From Candidatus Magasanikbacteria bacterium CG_4_10_14_0_2_um_filter_37_12 (lineage in GTDB: Bacteria > Patescibacteriota > Patescibacteriia > Magasanikbacterales > UBA922): a stretch of 39,261 bases of DNA. The stretch covers positions 1 through 39,261 of the forward strand of contig PFPK01000046.1 in the NCBI GenBank assembly GCA_002793015.1, in the 5' to 3' direction. Under the pieces are notes generated by a model, which had not been told where the DNA came from, ran no database searches, and worked only from the letters and a program-made list of their open reading frames with translations. This document shows, in pieces, positions 2,562 to 8,823 of the stretch. How positions within the stretch are numbered: the first letter of the stretch is position 1; every line of letters begins with the position of its first letter. The position numbers were made by a program, and so were the translations under genes.

Positions 2562-2843
2562 TTATTCTTTGTGACAGTCTGTTCTTTTTTTAAAACAACA
2601 CCCCACTAATATCCAAAGGCCAACTCCTACATATCCACAAATATACGTCTGGAACAATCCTGAAATAAAACTCTGTATATTCATTCCAGAAAAACCAACG
2701 TAACTAAGTCGAAACATCTGCAGATGCATTGTTTGTTCTACTGGATGTACAAAATACCATACAAAACAGACAATAAAAAGAAGTGATAAGAATAATCCGA
2801 TGCTGTTTCCACATCGCCAAAATCCACATTCTGGTTTATGCAT
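2562..2843 (-). CDS. Small Cys-rich two-TM membrane protein, function unknown
   Basis: The ORF track starts this ORF at a GTG (2852). I prefer the ATG at 2843 (MHKPECGFWRCG...) because a strong SD (GAAAGGAGGTGAT) sits about 8 nt upstream. It has two hydrophobic segments and Cys pairs (CGFWRC; GCCFKKRTDC). Confidence 0.55.
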   Translation of the reverse strand: MHKPECGFWRCGNSIGLFLSLLFIVCFVWYFVHPVEQTMHLQMFRLSYVGFSGMNIQSFISGLFQTYICGYVGVGLWILVGCCFKKRTDCHKE

Positions 2844-2939
2844 ACATATCACCTCCTTTCAAAGTAGGCTATTTTATACATAGTATACACTATATGTATG
2901 TGTTAGCAACTCATCTTGTGCCAAAAATACCTGAAAAAA

Positions 2940-3860
2940 TTACTCTTTTTCAGGTATAATTACTTTGTTTGTCTTCAAATCATTATATGTAACTTTACCG
3001 AGAGCTTCGTTTTTTCTGAATACAAACGTACCATCTTGTTCCTTTGTACCAACCTGAGACCAGATATTACTTATGGTAGCATATTCGTCCACCTCACTTG
3101 AAAGTATTATTGTAGGGACACTAGTGATAGTGTATCTAGCAAGCAATTCCTGCCCTTCCTCGCTTTGGATATCAAGAAGTGTCTCAGAATTAACAGCCAC
3201 ACCGAATTGTGCCAATATTGAACGCTGTACTTGACGTACATCATAACATTCAGTACAGCTAGCATCCGCAAGATAAATCACGTCCACAAGACCAAGTATT
3301 TTATTATCTTCCATATTTAAATATGGCGGAATTTTGTCTTCCCACACAAGTGTATTCTCGTCAACAACTTTAGAACTTTCTTGCAAAACTTTTTTGACAG
3401 ATGATTTAATCGTGTCGTCACTTAAAAACAACATGGCTGGGAGATGTTCAAACTTATATTTTTTTATTAGTGACTGGCCTTCTTCACTTTCTGCAGATAC
3501 TGTTCTGGTATCCAACAAGTCGACGTTTTGTTTTTCAACAAAGGATTTTTCTATATCCATTGCTCCACACAACGGACATTCTTCCGGAACGACAACAAGC
3601 AATGTCCCCTCTTGTGGCTTTGTAATACTAATTGCTTCATCAAGTTTTCCACTCATGCGAAATGTAAACAATCCCATGACAAGAAAATTTAGAATGAAAA
3701 TTATTCCCAGTATCAAAAGAAGAGTTTCCGTTGGATTCTTCGTTCCTGGTAATGAAATATATTTTTGCTTTGTCTCTCCATCATCACAACATCCTTCATC
3801 TTTTTTTTCTAGATCTTCTTTGAGATCTTGATTATGCTCTTTTTTGGAATTTGTTAACAT
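2940..3860 (-). CDS. Membrane-anchored protein with two tandem thioredoxin/glutaredoxin-like folds, each with a CxxC (PDO-like thiol:disulfide oxidoreductase)
   Basis: The charged N-terminus (with GCCDDG) is followed by one TM (LLLILGIIFILNFLVMGLF). Two internally repeated units follow: VVVPEECPLCG...SEEGQSLIKKYKFEHLP and IYLADASCTECYD...SEEGQELLARYTITSVP. Confidence 0.6.
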   Translation of the reverse strand: MLTNSKKEHNQDLKEDLEKKDEGCCDDGETKQKYISLPGTKNPTETLLLILGIIFILNFLVMGLFTFRMSGKLDEAISITKPQEGTLLVVVPEECPLCGAMDIEKSFVEKQNVDLLDTRTVSAESEEGQSLIKKYKFEHLPAMLFLSDDTIKSSVKKVLQESSKVVDENTLVWEDKIPPYLNMEDNKILGLVDVIYLADASCTECYDVRQVQRSILAQFGVAVNSETLLDIQSEEGQELLARYTITSVPTIILSSEVDEYATISNIWSQVGTKEQDGTFVFRKNEALGKVTYNDLKTNKVIIPEKE

Positions 3861-3899
3861 AAAATAATATTATTACAAAAAATAAATTTATGAGAATAT

Positions 3900-4085
3900 T
3901 TAGCACCCCCCTACCATTTGAGGAGCACTGCCATCGTCTGTAAAGCTGACTGCCGTAGGACTTGCTCCGAGTCCGATTTGTGCTTCTTCCAGTTTACTAC
4001 TCATTTGTGCTAACACCACTGTCTGATATGACAGTGCAATAATGACAACGACGAGAATAATTGAAAGTGATTTTTGAGATATCAT
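3900..4085 (-). CDS. 61-aa signal-anchored protein ending in ...APQMVGGC-COOH
   Basis: It has one N-terminal TM (LSIILVVVIIALSYQTVVLA) and a short, probably extracytoplasmic tail. The C-terminal 15 aa match the C-terminus of the next gene upstream (4131..5303). Confidence 0.5.
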   Translation of the reverse strand: MISQKSLSIILVVVIIALSYQTVVLAQMSSKLEEAQIGLGASPTAVSFTDDGSAPQMVGGC

Positions 4086-4130
4086 ACTATTTATAATACT
4101 TACTTAGTTAAATTATTTGTCATTAATTAT

Positions 4131-5303
4131 TTAACATCCACCAACCATACCAGGTGCTGTCGTTTCAGGTGTAAATCCAGATGATGATGCTTGTTTTTTT
4201 AGATCCGTAAGTTCTGCATCTGTTAGATTCATGGTGAGATACTTGATATCTGGAAGAAAATCAGATTTTTCACCAGCAAGTGCACTCGCCATACGTTGTT
4301 GCATTTGTATTGGGAAGTACAATCCTTTTTGTCGCATCAGCTCATAGGCAATCTCTGCGTTTGTCATGTTAGGATAATTTTTGATGAGATACGCAGCTGT
4401 TCCACGCATCGCAATCGAATGAGCGCAAGCACATGTTGGAGATCCGTCTTCACGAACCAATGTTTTTACACCACAACAAAATTCACACGTCACATACGGC
4501 TCAGTACCTATGGCAATATATCGCTCCATCTCTTCGTCAGTGAGCTGAATTGGCTTTGATCCTTGCTGTGGTGCCATAACGCCAAGTTTTGCGATAGACA
4601 CATTGATCGCATTCATATTCGACATATCAAGTCCAAGTTCTGATCCATAAAATGGCAATTCTCTTGGTGTCACAAGTGCCACAACATCCTTTGCAAAATC
4701 TCCTGTCATCAATACTCCCCCACTCATCGTTGATCCTGTTATGGCGTGACCTATACCAATGATCATAGATTGATTAAGAAGAAAAAGAAAAATAATAAGA
4801 GTTATTGTGAGATGATTAAATACATAATGCGACATACTTTTTTGTCCGTCTTCTTTGGGAGCAAACTTCTTCCATAGTAGTGTTATGCCAACGAGTAAAA
4901 GCAAGACTGAGAGAAGGCGAAGTCCCCAAAAATATGGTGATATAGCCATGACGGTTGCTGACAATCCGAACCATCCCAAGAAAAATATCGGACACACTGG
5001 ACAGAGTAATGTAAAAAGCGCAAGAATTCCTGATCCTCCCCCAACAGTACATGTTGTGGCTGTGTGTTGTCTTACGATGTGATAGAGCGCTGTACCAAAT
5101 CCAAATAGGATTGCGAATACTACAACAAATACAATATCCAATGTTGTCCGTTCTGTTAAAAACGAAATTTGGTACCCTACAATAGGAAGTGCCCACATGC
5201 CGTACAGAAATGTTTCTAAAAGAAGTGCTATCGCTGTTGTTCCAGCAAACCAGTACCAGAACGAATCATACGACAGGAGTCTCTGAATTTTGTTCATAGA
5301 CAA
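4131..5303 (-). CDS. Polytopic Cys-rich membrane protein with a soluble CxxCC/CxC domain, ending in ...APGMVGGC-COOH; function unknown
   Basis: The 390-aa ORF has several TM segments with intramembrane TCTVGGGSG and LLCPVCPIFF. A soluble part follows with YVTCEFCCGVKTLVREDGSPTCACAHS. The C-terminal tail is GFTPETTAPGMVGGC. Confidence 0.7.
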   Translation of the reverse strand: MSMNKIQRLLSYDSFWYWFAGTTAIALLLETFLYGMWALPIVGYQISFLTERTTLDIVFVVVFAILFGFGTALYHIVRQHTATTCTVGGGSGILALFTLLCPVCPIFFLGWFGLSATVMAISPYFWGLRLLSVLLLLVGITLLWKKFAPKEDGQKSMSHYVFNHLTITLIIFLFLLNQSMIIGIGHAITGSTMSGGVLMTGDFAKDVVALVTPRELPFYGSELGLDMSNMNAINVSIAKLGVMAPQQGSKPIQLTDEEMERYIAIGTEPYVTCEFCCGVKTLVREDGSPTCACAHSIAMRGTAAYLIKNYPNMTNAEIAYELMRQKGLYFPIQMQQRMASALAGEKSDFLPDIKYLTMNLTDAELTDLKKQASSSGFTPETTAPGMVGGC

Positions 5304-5375
5304 TACATATAATTATGATGCATCTGCGATGGCGCAGCACATTTTTTGTAATTGAGTCAATCTTTTTGCATACAA

Positions 5376-5888
5376 TTATTTCTTTTTTGTATACATCCAT
5401 ACGGCACCGATACCTCCCAACACCAGAATCCACCCAAACAATGTTTGAACAGAAATCTGAGATTGCCAGAAACTTTGTTTTATATTTTGTGGTTGTACCG
5501 TTGCAGGAATATTTTTATTTTCTGCGCGTAAATTTATAGATCTCATCATACCTCCAATCACTTTTGGTAATATACTACCTTCCAATGCTCCTTTCTGGTC
5601 ATCATTACAATAAAAACGTTGTGCCATAATACTGTGCATACGCACCAGATTATCTGAACCATCTCCGCCCATCATAACATCCATAATCTCATGTTCACCA
5701 CCCGGATGGATTTGTTCCATGTAGTAGTCACCGAGATGATCGAGCTGTTCTGTTGTGAGCTGGTCACATGGTGTTTGTTCTTCGATAATATTCTCAGCCT
5801 CTGAAAAAAGTCCTCCCTCTGTATGTGCAAATGCAGTGACAGGGAAGAATATTACAAAGGTAAGGAACATTAAAAAAAATTTATTCAT
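5376..5888 (-). CDS. Secreted/anchored His- and Met-rich protein (putative metal-binding)
   Basis: It has a signal peptide (MNKFFLMFLTFVIFFPVTAFA), then HLGDYYMEQIHPGGEHEIMDVMMGGDGSDNLVRMHS and GGMMRS. A C-terminal TM anchor (LFGWILVLGGIGAVWMY) is followed by KKK. Confidence 0.6.
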   Translation of the reverse strand: MNKFFLMFLTFVIFFPVTAFAHTEGGLFSEAENIIEEQTPCDQLTTEQLDHLGDYYMEQIHPGGEHEIMDVMMGGDGSDNLVRMHSIMAQRFYCNDDQKGALEGSILPKVIGGMMRSINLRAENKNIPATVQPQNIKQSFWQSQISVQTLFGWILVLGGIGAVWMYTKKK

Positions 5889-5928
5889 ATATTTTAGTTA
5901 TTAAACAATAATATTTTTATGATATTAT

Positions 5929-6369
5929 CTACCAATCACGGCAACAGGCAATGATCTGCTCAACAAGTTTGTGTATCTTTGGATTCCTTCGTGTCAAATA
6001 AATACTCCCAAATAACAGCCAAATAATAACGACAAAAGTACTCGCAAAAATCGCTTTTTCTGTCCAAGTAAGCACAACATACACCAAGAACGTCCCCGTC
6101 AAAATATAAGGAAGTCGAAAGAGATGAAATCGTTCATCAAGCCGTTTTTCAAGCAAATAATACATTCCGATGATACTCTGCCCCATTAATAATGCAATAA
6201 CTAACTCATCTTTGTAATACCCAAACAAGGATAGTACAAGTAGTAACACCCATGTACCACTCACAGCACTACATATTACACAAAATTTCCATGTCGTAAT
6301 ACGTTTTACTGCCAGCCCAATGACAAATAGTGTGGTGATTGAAACAAGGGCAATCGTGATGTCATTCAT
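5929..6369 (-). CDS. Small polytopic membrane protein with an intramembrane CxxC (FCVIC) and a C-terminal ACC
   Basis: I trimmed the tracked ORF (5929..6471) to the MNDITIALV start at 6369. That start overlaps the stop of the upstream gene in an ATGA arrangement (6366..6369). The product is about 147 aa with 4 predicted TM segments. Confidence 0.55.
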   Translation of the reverse strand: MNDITIALVSITTLFVIGLAVKRITTWKFCVICSAVSGTWVLLLVLSLFGYYKDELVIALLMGQSIIGMYYLLEKRLDERFHLFRLPYILTGTFLVYVVLTWTEKAIFASTFVVIIWLLFGSIYLTRRNPKIHKLVEQIIACCRDW

Positions 6370-6899
6370 AGGCCAAATTGGATAACAAGTGATACAAGCA
6401 CAAGCAAAGTAAGGGTAATCACAATGCCTTGGTAGGGAATGATTTTGCCGTTCTGTCGTTTTTTTATCCATGAACTAATATATGGTGATACCAACATAAT
6501 GACAGCTCCGATAATACTTCCCATCAAAAAATTATGGATCAAGTATGTTCTGTTGAAGATATTTCCGTATGGGCCAAACCAATAAATATTGATAGACATA
6601 TACTCACTTACTAGCGGAAGCATTGGTACGACAGTAGAAACGACAACCAAAATAGTAATAATCGTTGACTGATATAGGATTACCTGCTTCCATTTTTTTG
6701 CCAGTCGCGCCATCCACAAGCCAAGGGCGAGTGCAAAGGCTCCGATAAATACGCCAACTGCCATGGTACTTACTCCTAAATATGTCGCCCCAACAGCAAG
6801 TGTGCCAGCACCGATCGTACACAAAGGGCAATGTGCTTTTGCAACTGTTGGGATAAACAATAGGAGGCCACTGAGAAGTATTATAATCTGTTTTTTCAT
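6366..6899 (-). CDS. Polytopic membrane protein with a signal peptide immediately followed by HCPLC
   Basis: I trimmed the tracked ORF (6366..7082) to the MKKQIIILLSGLLLFIPTVAKA start at 6899. The upstream extension overlaps the DUF411 gene and looks non-protein-like. HCPLCTIGAG follows the predicted cleavage site. Confidence 0.6.
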   Translation of the reverse strand: MKKQIIILLSGLLLFIPTVAKAHCPLCTIGAGTLAVGATYLGVSTMAVGVFIGAFALALGLWMARLAKKWKQVILYQSTIITILVVVSTVVPMLPLVSEYMSINIYWFGPYGNIFNRTYLIHNFLMGSIIGAVIMLVSPYISSWIKKRQNGKIIPYQGIVITLTLLVLVSLVIQFGL

Positions 6900-6909
6900 A
6901 AAGAATACG

Positions 6910-7428
6910 TTAGAGGAACATAAACGATACTGTTCCACCATCTCTATCAAAACTATAGACGTTAAAAGCTGATCGCTTTGTACCTGGCATACCTGGAGAT
7001 CCGACAGGCATACCCGCCATACCAATACCTTTGACATCTGAGTGTAAAGCAAGAAGTTGTTGTATTGCTTCAACAGGCACATGCCCTTCGACTACATATT
7101 CTTCATCCCCGACAACAGTCGTGTGACAACTTGACTGATCCATTGGCACACCATATTTTTCTTTTGTGGGAGAAATATCGTCTACATCAATAACTTCCAC
7201 ATTATATCCTTCTCGCTTGAGATACGAAATATAATTTCCACAACATCCACAAGTTGGAGATTTGTATACCGTCATGTGTGGCTTCTCCGTGTTTAAAGCA
7301 AGAGTTTTTTCACTTCCCAACCCGATATTTGTAGATTTACCGCCTGATGCAAACAACATGCCAGTGCCTAGAACGATGAACACAATACCTATAGACAGCA
7401 CGACCGCTTGTTTCTTTTTCTTTTTCAT
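6910..7428 (-). CDS. copG: DUF411 / CopG-family copper-binding protein
   Basis: Family hallmarks are present: VYKSPTCGCCGNY, CHTTVV, EGHVP and GMPVGSPGMPG. The start is set at MKKKKKQ (7428), which gives an N-terminal TM/signal anchor. Confidence 0.8.
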   Translation of the reverse strand: MKKKKKQAVVLSIGIVFIVLGTGMLFASGGKSTNIGLGSEKTLALNTEKPHMTVYKSPTCGCCGNYISYLKREGYNVEVIDVDDISPTKEKYGVPMDQSSCHTTVVGDEEYVVEGHVPVEAIQQLLALHSDVKGIGMAGMPVGSPGMPGTKRSAFNVYSFDRDGGTVSFMFL

Positions 7429-7451: not shown

Positions 7452-7487
7452 AAAAAACGTCCACTCTTTTTGCTGAGTGGACGTTTT
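7452..7487 (-). terminator. Intrinsic terminator separating the 7503..7940 gene from the copG-led gene string
   Basis: A 10-bp GC-containing stem pairs acgtccactc with gagtggacgt around an 8-nt loop. On the minus strand it is followed by TTTTTT. Confidence 0.65.
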
Positions 7488-7502: not shown

Positions 7503-7940
7503 TTATACTATTATTGGTATATAGGCACGTCCAAAAAAATAATGAGGTAAATTTCCTTTGTTATTTATTGCAAGCCACCGAAGTATTTTTTGCCAAACCA
7601 AAACATGGCTTTCAGGCTCTCTCCTTGTATACCAATAGAGATAAGGAATTCTTACAACATCTTTCAATAAAAATAAAGATATTATAAGATAGACAAAAAA
7701 GAACTCAAAAATGTTGACGCTAGCAAGAGAAGTTAACTGCGATGTGAGAGCTCTAAGGTGTGAAGTAATCATTGCCAATACGTCGGCGTCGCCAACACAT
7801 GATGTATTGATAACATTCGCCATTGGACAGGCATGATCTTCCATGTCTCCCATATTTTCCATACTCGTAATAGACAATACTCCTATATAAAAAATAGAGG
7901 AAAAAGTGATAGCTATGGTAATGGCGATAAATCTTATCAT
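7503..7940 (-). CDS. Membrane protein with an extracytoplasmic Met/His/Cys patch (MENMGDMEDHACPM...SC); function unknown
   Basis: The 145-aa ORF has an N-terminal TM and at least one more hydrophobic segment. I recognise no family. Confidence 0.45.
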   Translation of the reverse strand: MIRFIAITIAITFSSIFYIGVLSITSMENMGDMEDHACPMANVINTSCVGDADVLAMITSHLRALTSQLTSLASVNIFEFFFVYLIISLFLLKDVVRIPYLYWYTRREPESHVLVWQKILRWLAINNKGNLPHYFFGRAYIPIIV

Positions 7941-8342: not shown

Positions 8343-8359
8343 AAGTTTTCTAACTTTTG

Positions 8360-8742
8360 CTCGGTGGGCGAGATTCGAACTCGCGACCAATTGGTTACAC
8401 TTGTCTTCTGGTTTCCCAAAAGGATGGACTATATTATCACCCTTGCCAAAAATCTCGATTTGACCGAGAAGCGTGTGGGTGCGAGGCGCTTCCCCACCCC
8501 GATGAACATCAGGGGAGTACTCCCTTAAAGGGATAGTCTCTGAACCTTCCTTTTCATGTCTCACACTACGCCAGAAATCTATCCGCAACGTCAAGAAATG
8601 AAAAGGCTTGGCTGCTGATTACCCACTCTGCATAACAGAGTTCAGGCTTCCAGCAGTTCACCTCGTTATCATCCCGATATTACTATCGGGAGCTGCTATA
8701 TATTGTTTACAGCCAACTGCTCTACCACTGAGCTACCACCGA
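8360..8742 (-). tRNA. tRNA-Asn(GUU) interrupted by a group I intron in the anticodon loop; no encoded CCA
   Basis: Exon 1 (8742..8709) reads TCGGTGG TA GCTC AGTGGTA GAGC A GTTGG CTGT. Exon 2 (8397..8360) reads TAA CCAAT TGGTC GCGAG TTCGAAT CTCGC CCACCGA G. Joined, they form a 72-nt cloverleaf with the loop CT-GTT-AA, a U1-A72 pair and a G73 discriminator, as in E. coli and B. subtilis tRNA-Asn. Confidence 0.85.
8398..8708 (-). ncRNA. Group I self-splicing intron (311 nt, no ORF), resembling the cyanobacterial tRNA-Leu-type (IC3-like) introns
   Basis: P1 pairs exon GGCUGU with the intron guide GCAGCU, with a terminal U.G pair. P2 is CCCGAUA-GUAA-UAUCGGG. P4 is CUGCUG/CAGCAG, P5 is CUCUG/CAGAG, and P6 is CCUUUUCAU/AUGAAAAGG. 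The conserved blocks CAGCCAAGCC, GGUUCAGAGACUA (P7) and AUAUAGUCC (P7') are present. The intron ends in G (..AAGUG). Confidence 0.8.
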
Positions 8743-8823
8743 ATATGTCGTATGATCTTTTGTATAAAAAGGTCGGATATATAATACTAAAAAATATACA
8801 AGATGTCAATAGATTTTTAAGAT

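Follow-up and report, generated by a model that had tools for sequence, protein, structure and literature searches.

What kind of system is encoded by a string of eight Cys-rich genes that sits beside a copper pump gene in a member of the Patescibacteria? The string occupies positions 2562-7428 of a 39,261-nucleotide stretch of Candidatus Magasanikbacteria bacterium CG_4_10_14_0_2_um_filter_37_12 (contig PFPK01000046.1), referred to below as the window. It consists of eight consecutive and co-directional minus-strand open reading frames (ORFs), g1 to g8, and all window features described here lie on this strand. Comparison with related loci leads us to propose that the string represents, in one lineage, a mosaic envelope island for copper or thiophilic-metal stress that is shared by bacteria of the Candidate Phyla Radiation (CPR, Patescibacteria) and DPANN archaea. 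We regard the case for this reading as evenly balanced. The most distinctive feature of the string is a pair of adjacent proteins, g5 and g6, that end in the same cysteine-terminated tail.

A first-pass annotation had described all products of the string as membrane-bound or secreted proteins with Cys, Met and His motifs. With gene starts refined by comparison with homologs and with database gene calls, this description holds. Each of the eight products contains at least one hydrophobic signal or transmembrane (TM) segment as judged from hydropathy and charge, and every motif quoted earlier is found at its coordinates. Cys accounts for 2.3% of residues in the eight proteins and for 0.71% in the 20 other window ORFs, a 3.2-fold difference, and Met for 4.0% versus 2.3%. 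Pfam and NCBIfam searches with ten window proteins return DUF411 and DUF302 as the only named families, with thioredoxin and DUF5676 models staying below threshold. The DUF411 protein g1, the DUF302 protein and CopA are ordinary members of known families, and a copper-linked envelope thiol system is, as a kind, already known. Judged by their sequences, g2, g3, g4, g5, g6, g8 and two families from related islands, here called 'ACCAHH' and 'GCPTCG', match nothing described. The pairing of g5 with a peptide that shares its terminal-Cys tail, and the g5 fold, are apparently new. To call the system undescribed is to rely on a limited check of the literature, where 'MVGGC' appeared in unrelated uses alone.

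The g5-g6-g7 core and its MVGGC tails

g5 (4131-5297) encodes a 4-TM domain with the motif CPVCP (4989-5003), an anchor helix, an ectodomain with a cluster of five Cys and one His (Cys5-His), and a terminal MVGGC (4134-4148). The next gene, g6 (3900-4085), encodes a 61-aa peptide, N-terminally anchored or signal-cleaved, that ends in the same five residues (3903-3917). From hydropathy and charge, the N-termini are predicted to be inside the cell, and the g5 ectodomain and the two tails to be outside. The pairing recurs widely, with one small ORF, sometimes two, directly following the g5 homolog in 83 of 85 sources. The tail peptides are built from an N-terminal hydrophobic helix and a low-complexity linker of ~ 35-40 residues, hold no other Cys, and have the same ending. 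Together, 78 large and 83 small proteins yield the logo S-[ILV]-x-[ND]-L-P-x-M-V-G-G-C-stop, and Cys is the final residue in 161/161 tails. The earlier mention of MVGGC proteins had no more than hinted at this invariant terminus shared by g5 and g6.

Among 28,731 stop-to-stop segments with a length of 25 aa or more, a GGC ending is found in only 172, nearly all from the g5 and peptide families, and chance can be rejected as the origin of the tail. A scan of metagenome DNA for P-x-MVGGC-stop, independent of the locus set, returned 133 ORFs, comprising 41 g5-like proteins, ~ 70 small peptides with an anchor, and a handful each of g5 fragments and GC-rich chance matches; within this sample the tail occurs on no protein kind besides g5-like proteins and small peptides. 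Variant tails are paired within loci (QVGGC with QVGGC in 5/5, MAGGC with MAGGC in 3/4, possibly from few lineages), and this co-variation suggests one common site that reads both tails. At position -5, Met is exchanged for Gln only. Some tail peptides hold His/Met segments, e.g., EKMNYEHHGTLPAR and EEMMAEMHPELYGE, and His/Cys-rich cytoplasmic N-termini are present in 10/79 peptides (e.g., HHDHCANC, HEHCEHCQGHGH, CC; C2H2-like motifs). These segments and N-termini, together with the Gln-only exchange, are hints consistent with metal binding. In Parcubacteria-type loci (L052, L054, L056, L059, L066, L068, L071 and L079) the peptides have a cytoplasmic extension of 25-70 residues with a conserved (E/D)L(E/D)xLKxEIL motif.

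Several known kinds of C-terminal signal were considered for the tail and rejected. LPXTG/sortase, PEP-CTERM, PGF-CTERM and GlyGly-CTERM systems likewise combine a strictly conserved C-terminal motif, here L-P-x-M-V-G-G-C, with an adjacent partner gene. In contrast to these sorting signals, MVGGC is followed by neither a TM helix nor a basic cluster, because Cys is the last residue, and no sortase, exosortase or rhombosortase lies near g5/g6, nor is any sortase-like gene a recurrent neighbour. A CaaX prenylation signal needs its Cys at -4, whereas the tail has it at -1, and prenyltransferase fold matches have E values of ~ 1 or worse. Sulfur carriers of the ThiS/MoaD/ubiquitin type are cytoplasmic beta-grasp proteins with a GG terminus, which does not agree with peptides composed of TM helix, linker and tail, or with a mostly helical g5 ectodomain. 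As to a precursor of a ribosomally synthesized and post-translationally modified peptide, no radical SAM, YcaO, lanthipeptide synthetase or MbnBC gene is found among the recurrent neighbours of g5 in 80 loci.

The g5 family itself is compact and well separated, with 283 clusters among 1.84 billion representatives in an exhaustive hidden Markov model search, and relatives in 522 genomes in a pattern scan in which a single genome stood for each species. None of its 84 word-indexed homologs has a Pfam domain or an informative name; their hosts are Magasanikbacteria, Peregrinibacteria and other Patescibacteria as well as Woese-, Pace- and Nanoarchaeota. Contigs titled 'uncultured Gammaproteobacteria bacterium' or 'Methanosarcinales archaeon' (L005, L029-L043 and others) were excluded from this taxonomic statement, as their titles look like automated-binning errors; the islands on these contigs have the form typical of CPR or DPANN. 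We place the start of g5 at the ATG at 5297, which matches the Met of the homologs, with TTG at 5303 also possible. The database gene call (P0001, 355 aa) begins ~ 35 residues late compared with full-length homologs of 385-391 aa and therefore loses the first TM helix.

In the family alignment, the ectodomain cluster C-x2-C-C...C-x-C-x-H (4419-4487; CEFCCG at 4470-4487, CACAH at 4419-4433) is represented by the invariant residues C273, C276, C277, C291, C293 and H295, and the C-terminus by the invariant columns M386, G388 and C390. The 4-TM CPVCP domain is present only in the ~ 390-aa forms of g5; otherwise it occurs as a free-standing gene, the 'GCPTCG' family (pairwise E = 7e-6). An AlphaFold2 model of the ectodomain, with a predicted local distance difference test (pLDDT) score of 93.6 and a predicted template modelling (pTM) score of 0.90, is mainly helical and carries the Cys cluster on short strand/knuckle elements. 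For the full-length protein the pLDDT is 84, and the last 10-20 residues are modelled at 70-79, above what is usual for a free tail and not as disorder, a further hint consistent with metal binding. Foldseek finds no significant match in the PDB for either the ectodomain or the full-length model (best E 0.97, TM-score ≤ 0.21). The best rows for the ectodomain, prenyltransferase beta subunits, were dismissed as not significant (E ~ 1, TM-score 0.2). An ectodomain profile searched against PDB sequences gives a chance match alone (E = 2.6), and NCBIfam has no match for g5. Pfam searches of 21 g5 homologs at E ≤ 10 return no consistent family and no PCYCGC, YHS or TRASH match. This includes the PCYCGC-motif family (PF13798), which we had taken to be a possible relative of the ectodomain and which is dismissed on these grounds.

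Two loci show further variation around g5. Locus L206 lacks g5 and encodes, before g2 and in the position of the DUF411 gene, a 243-aa anchored protein (6260-6988; 'PCCGNS...DCNHGMAMLG') with the motif PCCGNSAYFPDCNHGMAMLG and the end ...QGGGCNV. It may be a distant relative; a sequence-profile comparison aligns it weakly to the g5 Cys cluster (hhalign probability 17%, E = 0.0014). A Woesearchaeota contig, L205, has two g5 paralogs (1-951 and 5374-6503). The first of these lacks the MVGGC tail, yet a tail-bearing peptide comes next; the second is itself tailed and precedes two tail peptides. Genes for a cupredoxin, DoxX, DUF411, g2, rhodanese and a YHS-HMA ATPase are present in this island as well.

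The third core gene, g7 (2940-3860), stands directly downstream of g5 and the peptide in 60/80 loci and is predicted to encode a membrane-anchored protein whose two thioredoxin-like folds lie outside the membrane. The first of its CxxC motifs (CPLC, 3567-3578) is kept in 63/63 homologs and the second (CTEC, 3246-3257) in 97%. All scores against the thioredoxin, glutaredoxin and protein disulfide oxidoreductase (PDO) models of Pfam and NCBIfam are below cut-off, including a weak TIGR02187 match of 16.5 bits versus a cut-off of 185. The best PDB sequence matches include the Aquifex PDO structures 2ywm and 2ayt at E ~ 0.08, far below threshold. By sequence, g7 is thus weakly but recognisably similar to PDO, which has two thioredoxin folds. 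As in the PDO of Pyrococcus and Aquifex, each of its two thioredoxin-like units has a conserved CxxC; unlike g7, with its predicted anchor, outside domains and far lower scores, PDO is cytoplasmic.

Gene neighbourhoods and copper linkage

To describe the surroundings of g5, ORFs within 7 kb were clustered over 80 non-redundant loci and labelled with phmmer. The consensus co-directional order consists of a BlaI-BlaR1-like pair or CsoR, g5, the peptide, g7, a variable set and copA, with g2 taking the place of g7 after the peptide in some DPANN loci; nearly always, one of these two genes comes next after the g5-peptide pair. The variable set is drawn from DUF1573, 'GCPTCG', 'ACCAHH', a cytoplasmic protein ending in CC, g3, g8 or DUF5676, and DUF302. 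Labelled neighbours share the strand of g5 in 466 of 510 cases. By number of loci out of 80, recurrence descends from g7 (60) over DUF1573 (37-54), the BlaR1-like M56/M48 peptidase (37), the BlaI-family repressor (35), 'ACCAHH' (35), 'GCPTCG' (28), copA (22, or 31 if HMA proteins are counted), g2 (18), CsoR (16), g3 (12) and DUF302 (10) to DUF411 (8). Proteins of the DsbD_TM/DsbD_2 type, rhodanese and further thioredoxin-like genes also occur in related islands.

Linkage to copper genes is best followed in the 29 loci with complete 10-kb flanks. Here copA lies within 10 kb of g5 in 11 loci, and 15 loci contain one or more of copA, CsoR and DUF411, against an estimated chance expectation of ~ 2% for any gene present once in a genome of ~ 1 Mb. 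The Y-C...H-x3-C fingerprint of Cu(I)-binding CsoR is found in ~ 10/16 of the CsoR homologs; in the remaining full-length sequences His replaces the last Cys. In L003, L015, L046, L062 and L073, CsoR is encoded directly upstream of g5.

In 35-37 of the 80 loci (within L027-L083; e.g., L037:8685-9740 and L038:6081-6515), BlaI (PF03965) and a BlaR1-like M56/M48 peptidase directly precede g5. This peptidase lacks a penicillin-binding sensor domain and has Cys-rich segments, with ICGCTDH and a C-terminal Cys-rich ectodomain; the pair may sense metal or thiol stress. The two unnamed membrane families of the variable set are also marked by Cys, 'ACCAHH' by the invariant pattern M..CC.H....P..G and 'GCPTCG' by an invariant CPxC (e.g., L069:12283-13125 and L044:6575-7081). 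Neither family has a match in Pfam.

These neighbourhoods bear on the earlier view of the six genes without a known family as one conserved module. Synteny with metal genes is indeed conserved, with the genes recurring beside copA, csoR, DUF411 and DUF302; in profile searches none of the six falls into an unrelated family that is well understood, and the listed cysteines are invariant or nearly so among homologs from other genomes. The idea of a single module does not survive the comparison. By gene content across the loci, the island is instead a mosaic of a g5-g6-g7 core, present in CPR bacteria and DPANN archaea, a g1-g2-g3 sub-module, and sporadic accessory genes g4 and g8. We treat g1-g2-g3 as a separate copper-linked sub-module because g2-g3 are found behind csoR, ATPase and DUF411 genes in the absence of g5. 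The statement that only CopA, DUF302 and DUF411 belong to families with any literature needs correction for g7, which, with its recognisable likeness to PDO, is not wholly unknown. A near-complete counterpart of the window arrangement, g1-g2-g3...g5-g6-g7-(g8)-copA, recurs in the Magasanikbacteria-type loci L001, L005, L006 and L014.

Proposed mechanism and competing explanations

Copper stress leads to non-native disulfides, which are repaired by thioredoxin-fold proteins, as in the Scs and DsbC systems. To our knowledge, the fate of Cu(I) at the outer face of single-membrane cells after export by CopA is poorly understood, and almost nothing is known of how CPR bacteria and DPANN archaea manage metals and thiols. 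We hypothesize how an island for copper stress could act as an inducible defence of the envelope, holding each individual step to be considerably less certain than the general reading. CopA would expel Cu(I), and the flexible tails of g6 and g5 would catch it at the outer face with one Met thioether and one terminal Cys thiolate each; alternatively, the tails might be relay or sacrificial thiols. From the tails the metal would pass to the Cys5-His site of the g5 ectodomain, and g7 would re-reduce or isomerise copper-oxidised cysteines of the tails and the envelope. g2, with HCPLC outside, g3, with CxxC and CC inside, and the CPVCP domain of g5 could join this outer chemistry to the cytoplasm, with g4 contributing Met/His copper binding. 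CopG (g1) would interconvert Cu(I) and Cu(II), as has been proposed for CopG, which binds a tetranuclear copper cluster via CxCC and Met (PMC7558416).

A bolder proposal, which we advance tentatively and hold to be rather less than probable, concerns g5 and the peptides alone. They may form a so far unrecognised surface class, 'MVGGC-terminal arms', in which a new Cys5-His fold and tethered single-Cys mini-proteins act as an extracellular metal and thiol relay that would have been exchanged between CPR and DPANN; in a variant, equally tentative, they would be the protein-tethered counterpart of a low-molecular-weight thiol buffer. Flexible C-terminal Cys arms that ferry electrons or Cu(I) are known from Erv2p (CGC), CCS (CXC) and Ctr1 (HCH). 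The role proposed for g5/g6 resembles theirs in that a short C-terminal segment with a reactive Cys serves a fixed site. It differs in the single terminal Cys, the duplication of the tail on a mini-protein and the extracytoplasmic location, and no homology is seen. If true, such arms may protect or service the surface of organisms that have no outer membrane and mostly no quinones. Confirmation would provide a new protein family and a design principle, the tethered terminal-Cys arm, for copper and thiol biology, and would document inter-domain sharing of an envelope defence module, in an island that is conserved, compact and experimentally tractable.

Several observations weigh against a copper-stress island. 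In about half of the 29 complete loci, the 10 kb around g5 hold no copper marker, and the commonest upstream regulators are BlaI/BlaR1-like pairs (35/80 loci), which are not known as copper sensors. The window itself contains neither a regulator nor a DsbD-type reductant conduit. Gene association is the only basis for copper specificity. Moreover, four of the five cluster cysteines could hold structural zinc or form disulfides instead, and a single Met and Cys are by themselves a weak Cu(I) site.

Much of the same evidence could also reflect a general oxidative-folding machinery for quinone-free cells. Here g5 would make or transfer disulfides, the tail cysteines of g5 and g6 would be shuttle thiols forming tail-tail mixed disulfides, and g7 a DsbA/PDI-like catalyst; copper genes would adjoin since copper damages thiols or is a cofactor. 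The two conserved CxxC thioredoxin-like units of g7 agree with this, as do the DsbD_TM/DsbD_2, rhodanese and additional thioredoxin-like genes of the islands, the roughly one half of the complete loci that lack a copper marker within 10 kb, and the confinement of the family to CPR and DPANN, most of which lack quinones. We nevertheless consider it unlikely, given that the island stands under CsoR- or BlaI/BlaR1-type repressors, control that implies an inducible stress response and not housekeeping. Further difficulties are the strong enrichment of copA, DUF411, DUF302 and YHS and the His/Met-rich segments in g4 and some tail peptides; nor were domains found that would couple to flavin, quinone or another oxidant. 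Extracytoplasmic CxxC thioredoxin-fold proteins are genetically tied to copper stress in Scs (ScsABCD), in DsbD-DsbC/DsbG of Proteobacteria and in CcdA-ResA of Firmicutes, and many related islands share DsbD-type membrane proteins with these systems. The window departs from them, with no DsbD_TM or DsbD_2 match and no CcdA homolog among its proteins. They in turn have nothing resembling the g5-peptide pair, and g7 is set apart by being two-domain, anchored and under every thioredoxin-family threshold.

The strict conservation of a 12-residue motif at the exact C-terminus of both an enzyme-sized protein and an adjacent mini-protein would also be expected if MVGGC were a recognition or processing signal. 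In that case g5, an enzyme with, for example, a zinc-activated thiol or Cys-His centre, would modify, cross-link, lipidate or trim the terminal Cys of the peptide and its own, and a thiol peptide would mature for the surface or for secretion. Within loci the tails co-vary, they are exclusive to two families, C-x2-C...C-x-C could hold zinc with one Cys and one His left free, and the best Foldseek rows, though not significant and a lead only, are prenyltransferase beta subunits, which act on a C-terminal Cys. Against this stand the lack of radical SAM, YcaO, sortase, Lgt or prenyltransferase genes in the neighbourhoods, the absence of the known sorting-signal layout (motif, TM helix and basic tail), a fold match short of significance, and a copper-gene linkage left unexplained, so that we find the proposal quite unlikely. 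Silver, mercury, cadmium or zinc might take the place of copper in an otherwise identical architecture. P1B-1 pumps also move Ag(I), and vicinal Cys pairs near or in membrane helices (CC of g3 and g8, 'ACCAHH', 'GCPTCG') recall Mer transporters. As in the MerP/MerT/MerF/MerC relays, which pass a thiophilic metal from one Cys pair to another, Cys pairs are predicted outside, within and inside the membrane (compare HCPLC of g2, CPVCP of g5, and CxxC and CC of g3). This substitution is nonetheless highly improbable, as no MerA, MerB, MerR or ArsR genes and no Zn/Cd-type ATPase signature were seen, the CopA ortholog of L001 has the Cu(I)/Ag(I) signature, and DUF411/CopG and CsoR indicate copper. 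No Mer family passes Pfam; Mer transporter models, considered for g3, g8 and the N-terminal domain of g5, have no Pfam or NCBIfam match at E ≤ 0.1 in the window proteins and none at E ≤ 10 in the related TM families. A sulfur relay, in which persulfide supplied by rhodanese is carried on the terminal cysteines for sulfide/polysulfide detoxification or for precipitation of copper sulfide at the surface, is highly improbable in our view. It would draw on the rhodanese domains, free or fused to DUF1573, of several islands, on the persulfide sensors within the CsoR family, and on the single reactive Cys on a flexible arm that is typical of sulfur carriers. Rhodanese is, however, absent from the window and most loci, the ligand set of most CsoR homologs is the Cu(I)-type C-H-C, and genes for persulfide dioxygenase, SQR or a TusA-type protein were not seen.

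Sub-module, accessory and flanking genes

The lead gene of the string, g1 (6910-7428), encodes a membrane-anchored protein with the CxCC motif (TCGCCG, 7240-7251) and matches PF04214 (DUF411) at E = 7.2e-20 (70.9 bits, cut-off 27). Homologs keep C60 and C63 without exception, and conservation is 78% for each of C62, M140 and M147. On this similarity g1 is a bona fide member of the DUF411/CopG family, whose copper cluster and redox activity are here only predicted. Compared with CopG, a periplasmic copper oxidoreductase (Hausrath et al. 2020, as summarised in PMC7558416), g1 shares CxCC, Met and a position adjoining copA, but is membrane-anchored and belongs to an organism predicted to have a single membrane. 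The C-x2-C-C-G cluster of the g5 ectodomain is superficially similar, although no relationship of g5 to DUF411 can be detected in either sequence or fold.

g2 (6366-6899) is polytopic, with a predicted mature N-terminus H-C-P-L-C (6819-6833). Its AHCPLCT sequence is invariant in 19 homologs and lies at the predicted signal-peptide cleavage site, so that the mature protein would start with His-Cys. All of its 173 homologs are hypothetical proteins, and the named ones come solely from CPR and DPANN. The coding sequence overlaps that of g3 (5929-6369) in an ATGA arrangement at exactly 6366-6369, as the first-pass annotation had it. For g3, hydropathy and charge predict five TM segments, with CxxC (CVIC, 6271-6282) at the end of TM2 that faces the cytoplasm and CC (ACC, 5941-5949) at the C-terminus. 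C30 and C33 are invariant, C142/C143 are 92% conserved, and the C-terminus reads CC[KR][ND]W. g3 follows g2 in L001, L005, L006, L014, L045, L072, L206 and L207. The last two of these loci lack g5 and have the orders csoR, ATPase, DUF1573, 243-aa Cys protein, g2, g3 (L206) and csoR, P-type ATPase, DUF305, DUF411, g2, g3 (L207). In many DPANN loci a soluble protein of ~ 165 aa, 'c14' (L205:7527-8027, L044:1392-1883), stands in for g3 after g2. It looks unrelated to g3, yet both end in a cytoplasmic CC[KR][NDE]W, a second shared C-terminal Cys tail in the island.

Of the two accessory genes, g4 (5376-5888) encodes a secreted, Met/His-rich protein (e.g., HPGGEHEIMDVMMGG, 5664-5708) with a signal peptide and a C-terminal TM segment as anchor. 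Its family is small, with five homologs. C41, C94, M57, H66 and H85 are conserved; a DPANN homolog is encoded between a BlaI/M48 pair and DsbD_TM, glutaredoxin-like, YHS, DUF302 and P-type ATPase genes. g8 (2562-2843) encodes a small, Cys-rich two-TM protein and has the strong Shine-Dalgarno sequence noted before, AGGAGG, 8 nt before its ATG. Homologs of g8 occur in 6-8 related loci, often immediately before copA, and the match of g8 to DUF5676 is weak and below cut-off (E = 0.003).

The string ends toward copA at a hairpin between g8 and the DUF302 gene (2508-2536; -23.6 kcal/mol, z = -7.0 against shuffled sequence). Upstream of g1, an intrinsic terminator (7452-7487; -23.2 kcal/mol, z = -5.6 against shuffles), with T6 directly after a stem of 13 bp, ends the g0 transcript. 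A simple terminator scan overlooked both hairpins because its loop and tail rules are narrower, and direct folding confirmed them; the eight-gene string between two hairpins is therefore real. The DUF302-CopA pair reported downstream is likewise borne out, as is the DUF411 lead gene, by Pfam scores above cut-off and by the CopA motifs. The DUF302 protein (2095-2481) scores 83.1 bits against PF03625 (cut-off 23, E = 1.3e-23), and the fragment of copA (1-2040), a gene for a P1B-type Cu(I) ATPase whose 3' part extends beyond the window, encodes an HMA domain and an ACPCALG (CPC) motif. TM7-8 of this CopA also fall beyond the window; the full-length ortholog in L001 has the YN...MALSS signature of the Cu(I)/Ag(I) type. 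Upstream of the terminator, the previously noted membrane protein is present as g0 (7503-7940), a two-TM protein with MENMGDMEDHACPM. A phmmer search places a homolog in one related locus only, and we include g0 as context, its membership in the island being uncertain.

Farther upstream, in the region 8345-8745, a group I catalytic intron (8405-8718) scores 67.5 bits in Rfam against a gathering score of 50. It splits the anticodon loop of a tRNA gene that ARAGORN alone missed, with the 5' half TCGGTGGTAGCTCAGTGGTAGAGCAGTTGGCT and the 3' half ...CCAATTGGTCGCGAGTTCGAATCTCGCCCACCGA. The exact splice sites are ambiguous, and the gene probably encodes tRNA-Thr(UGU).

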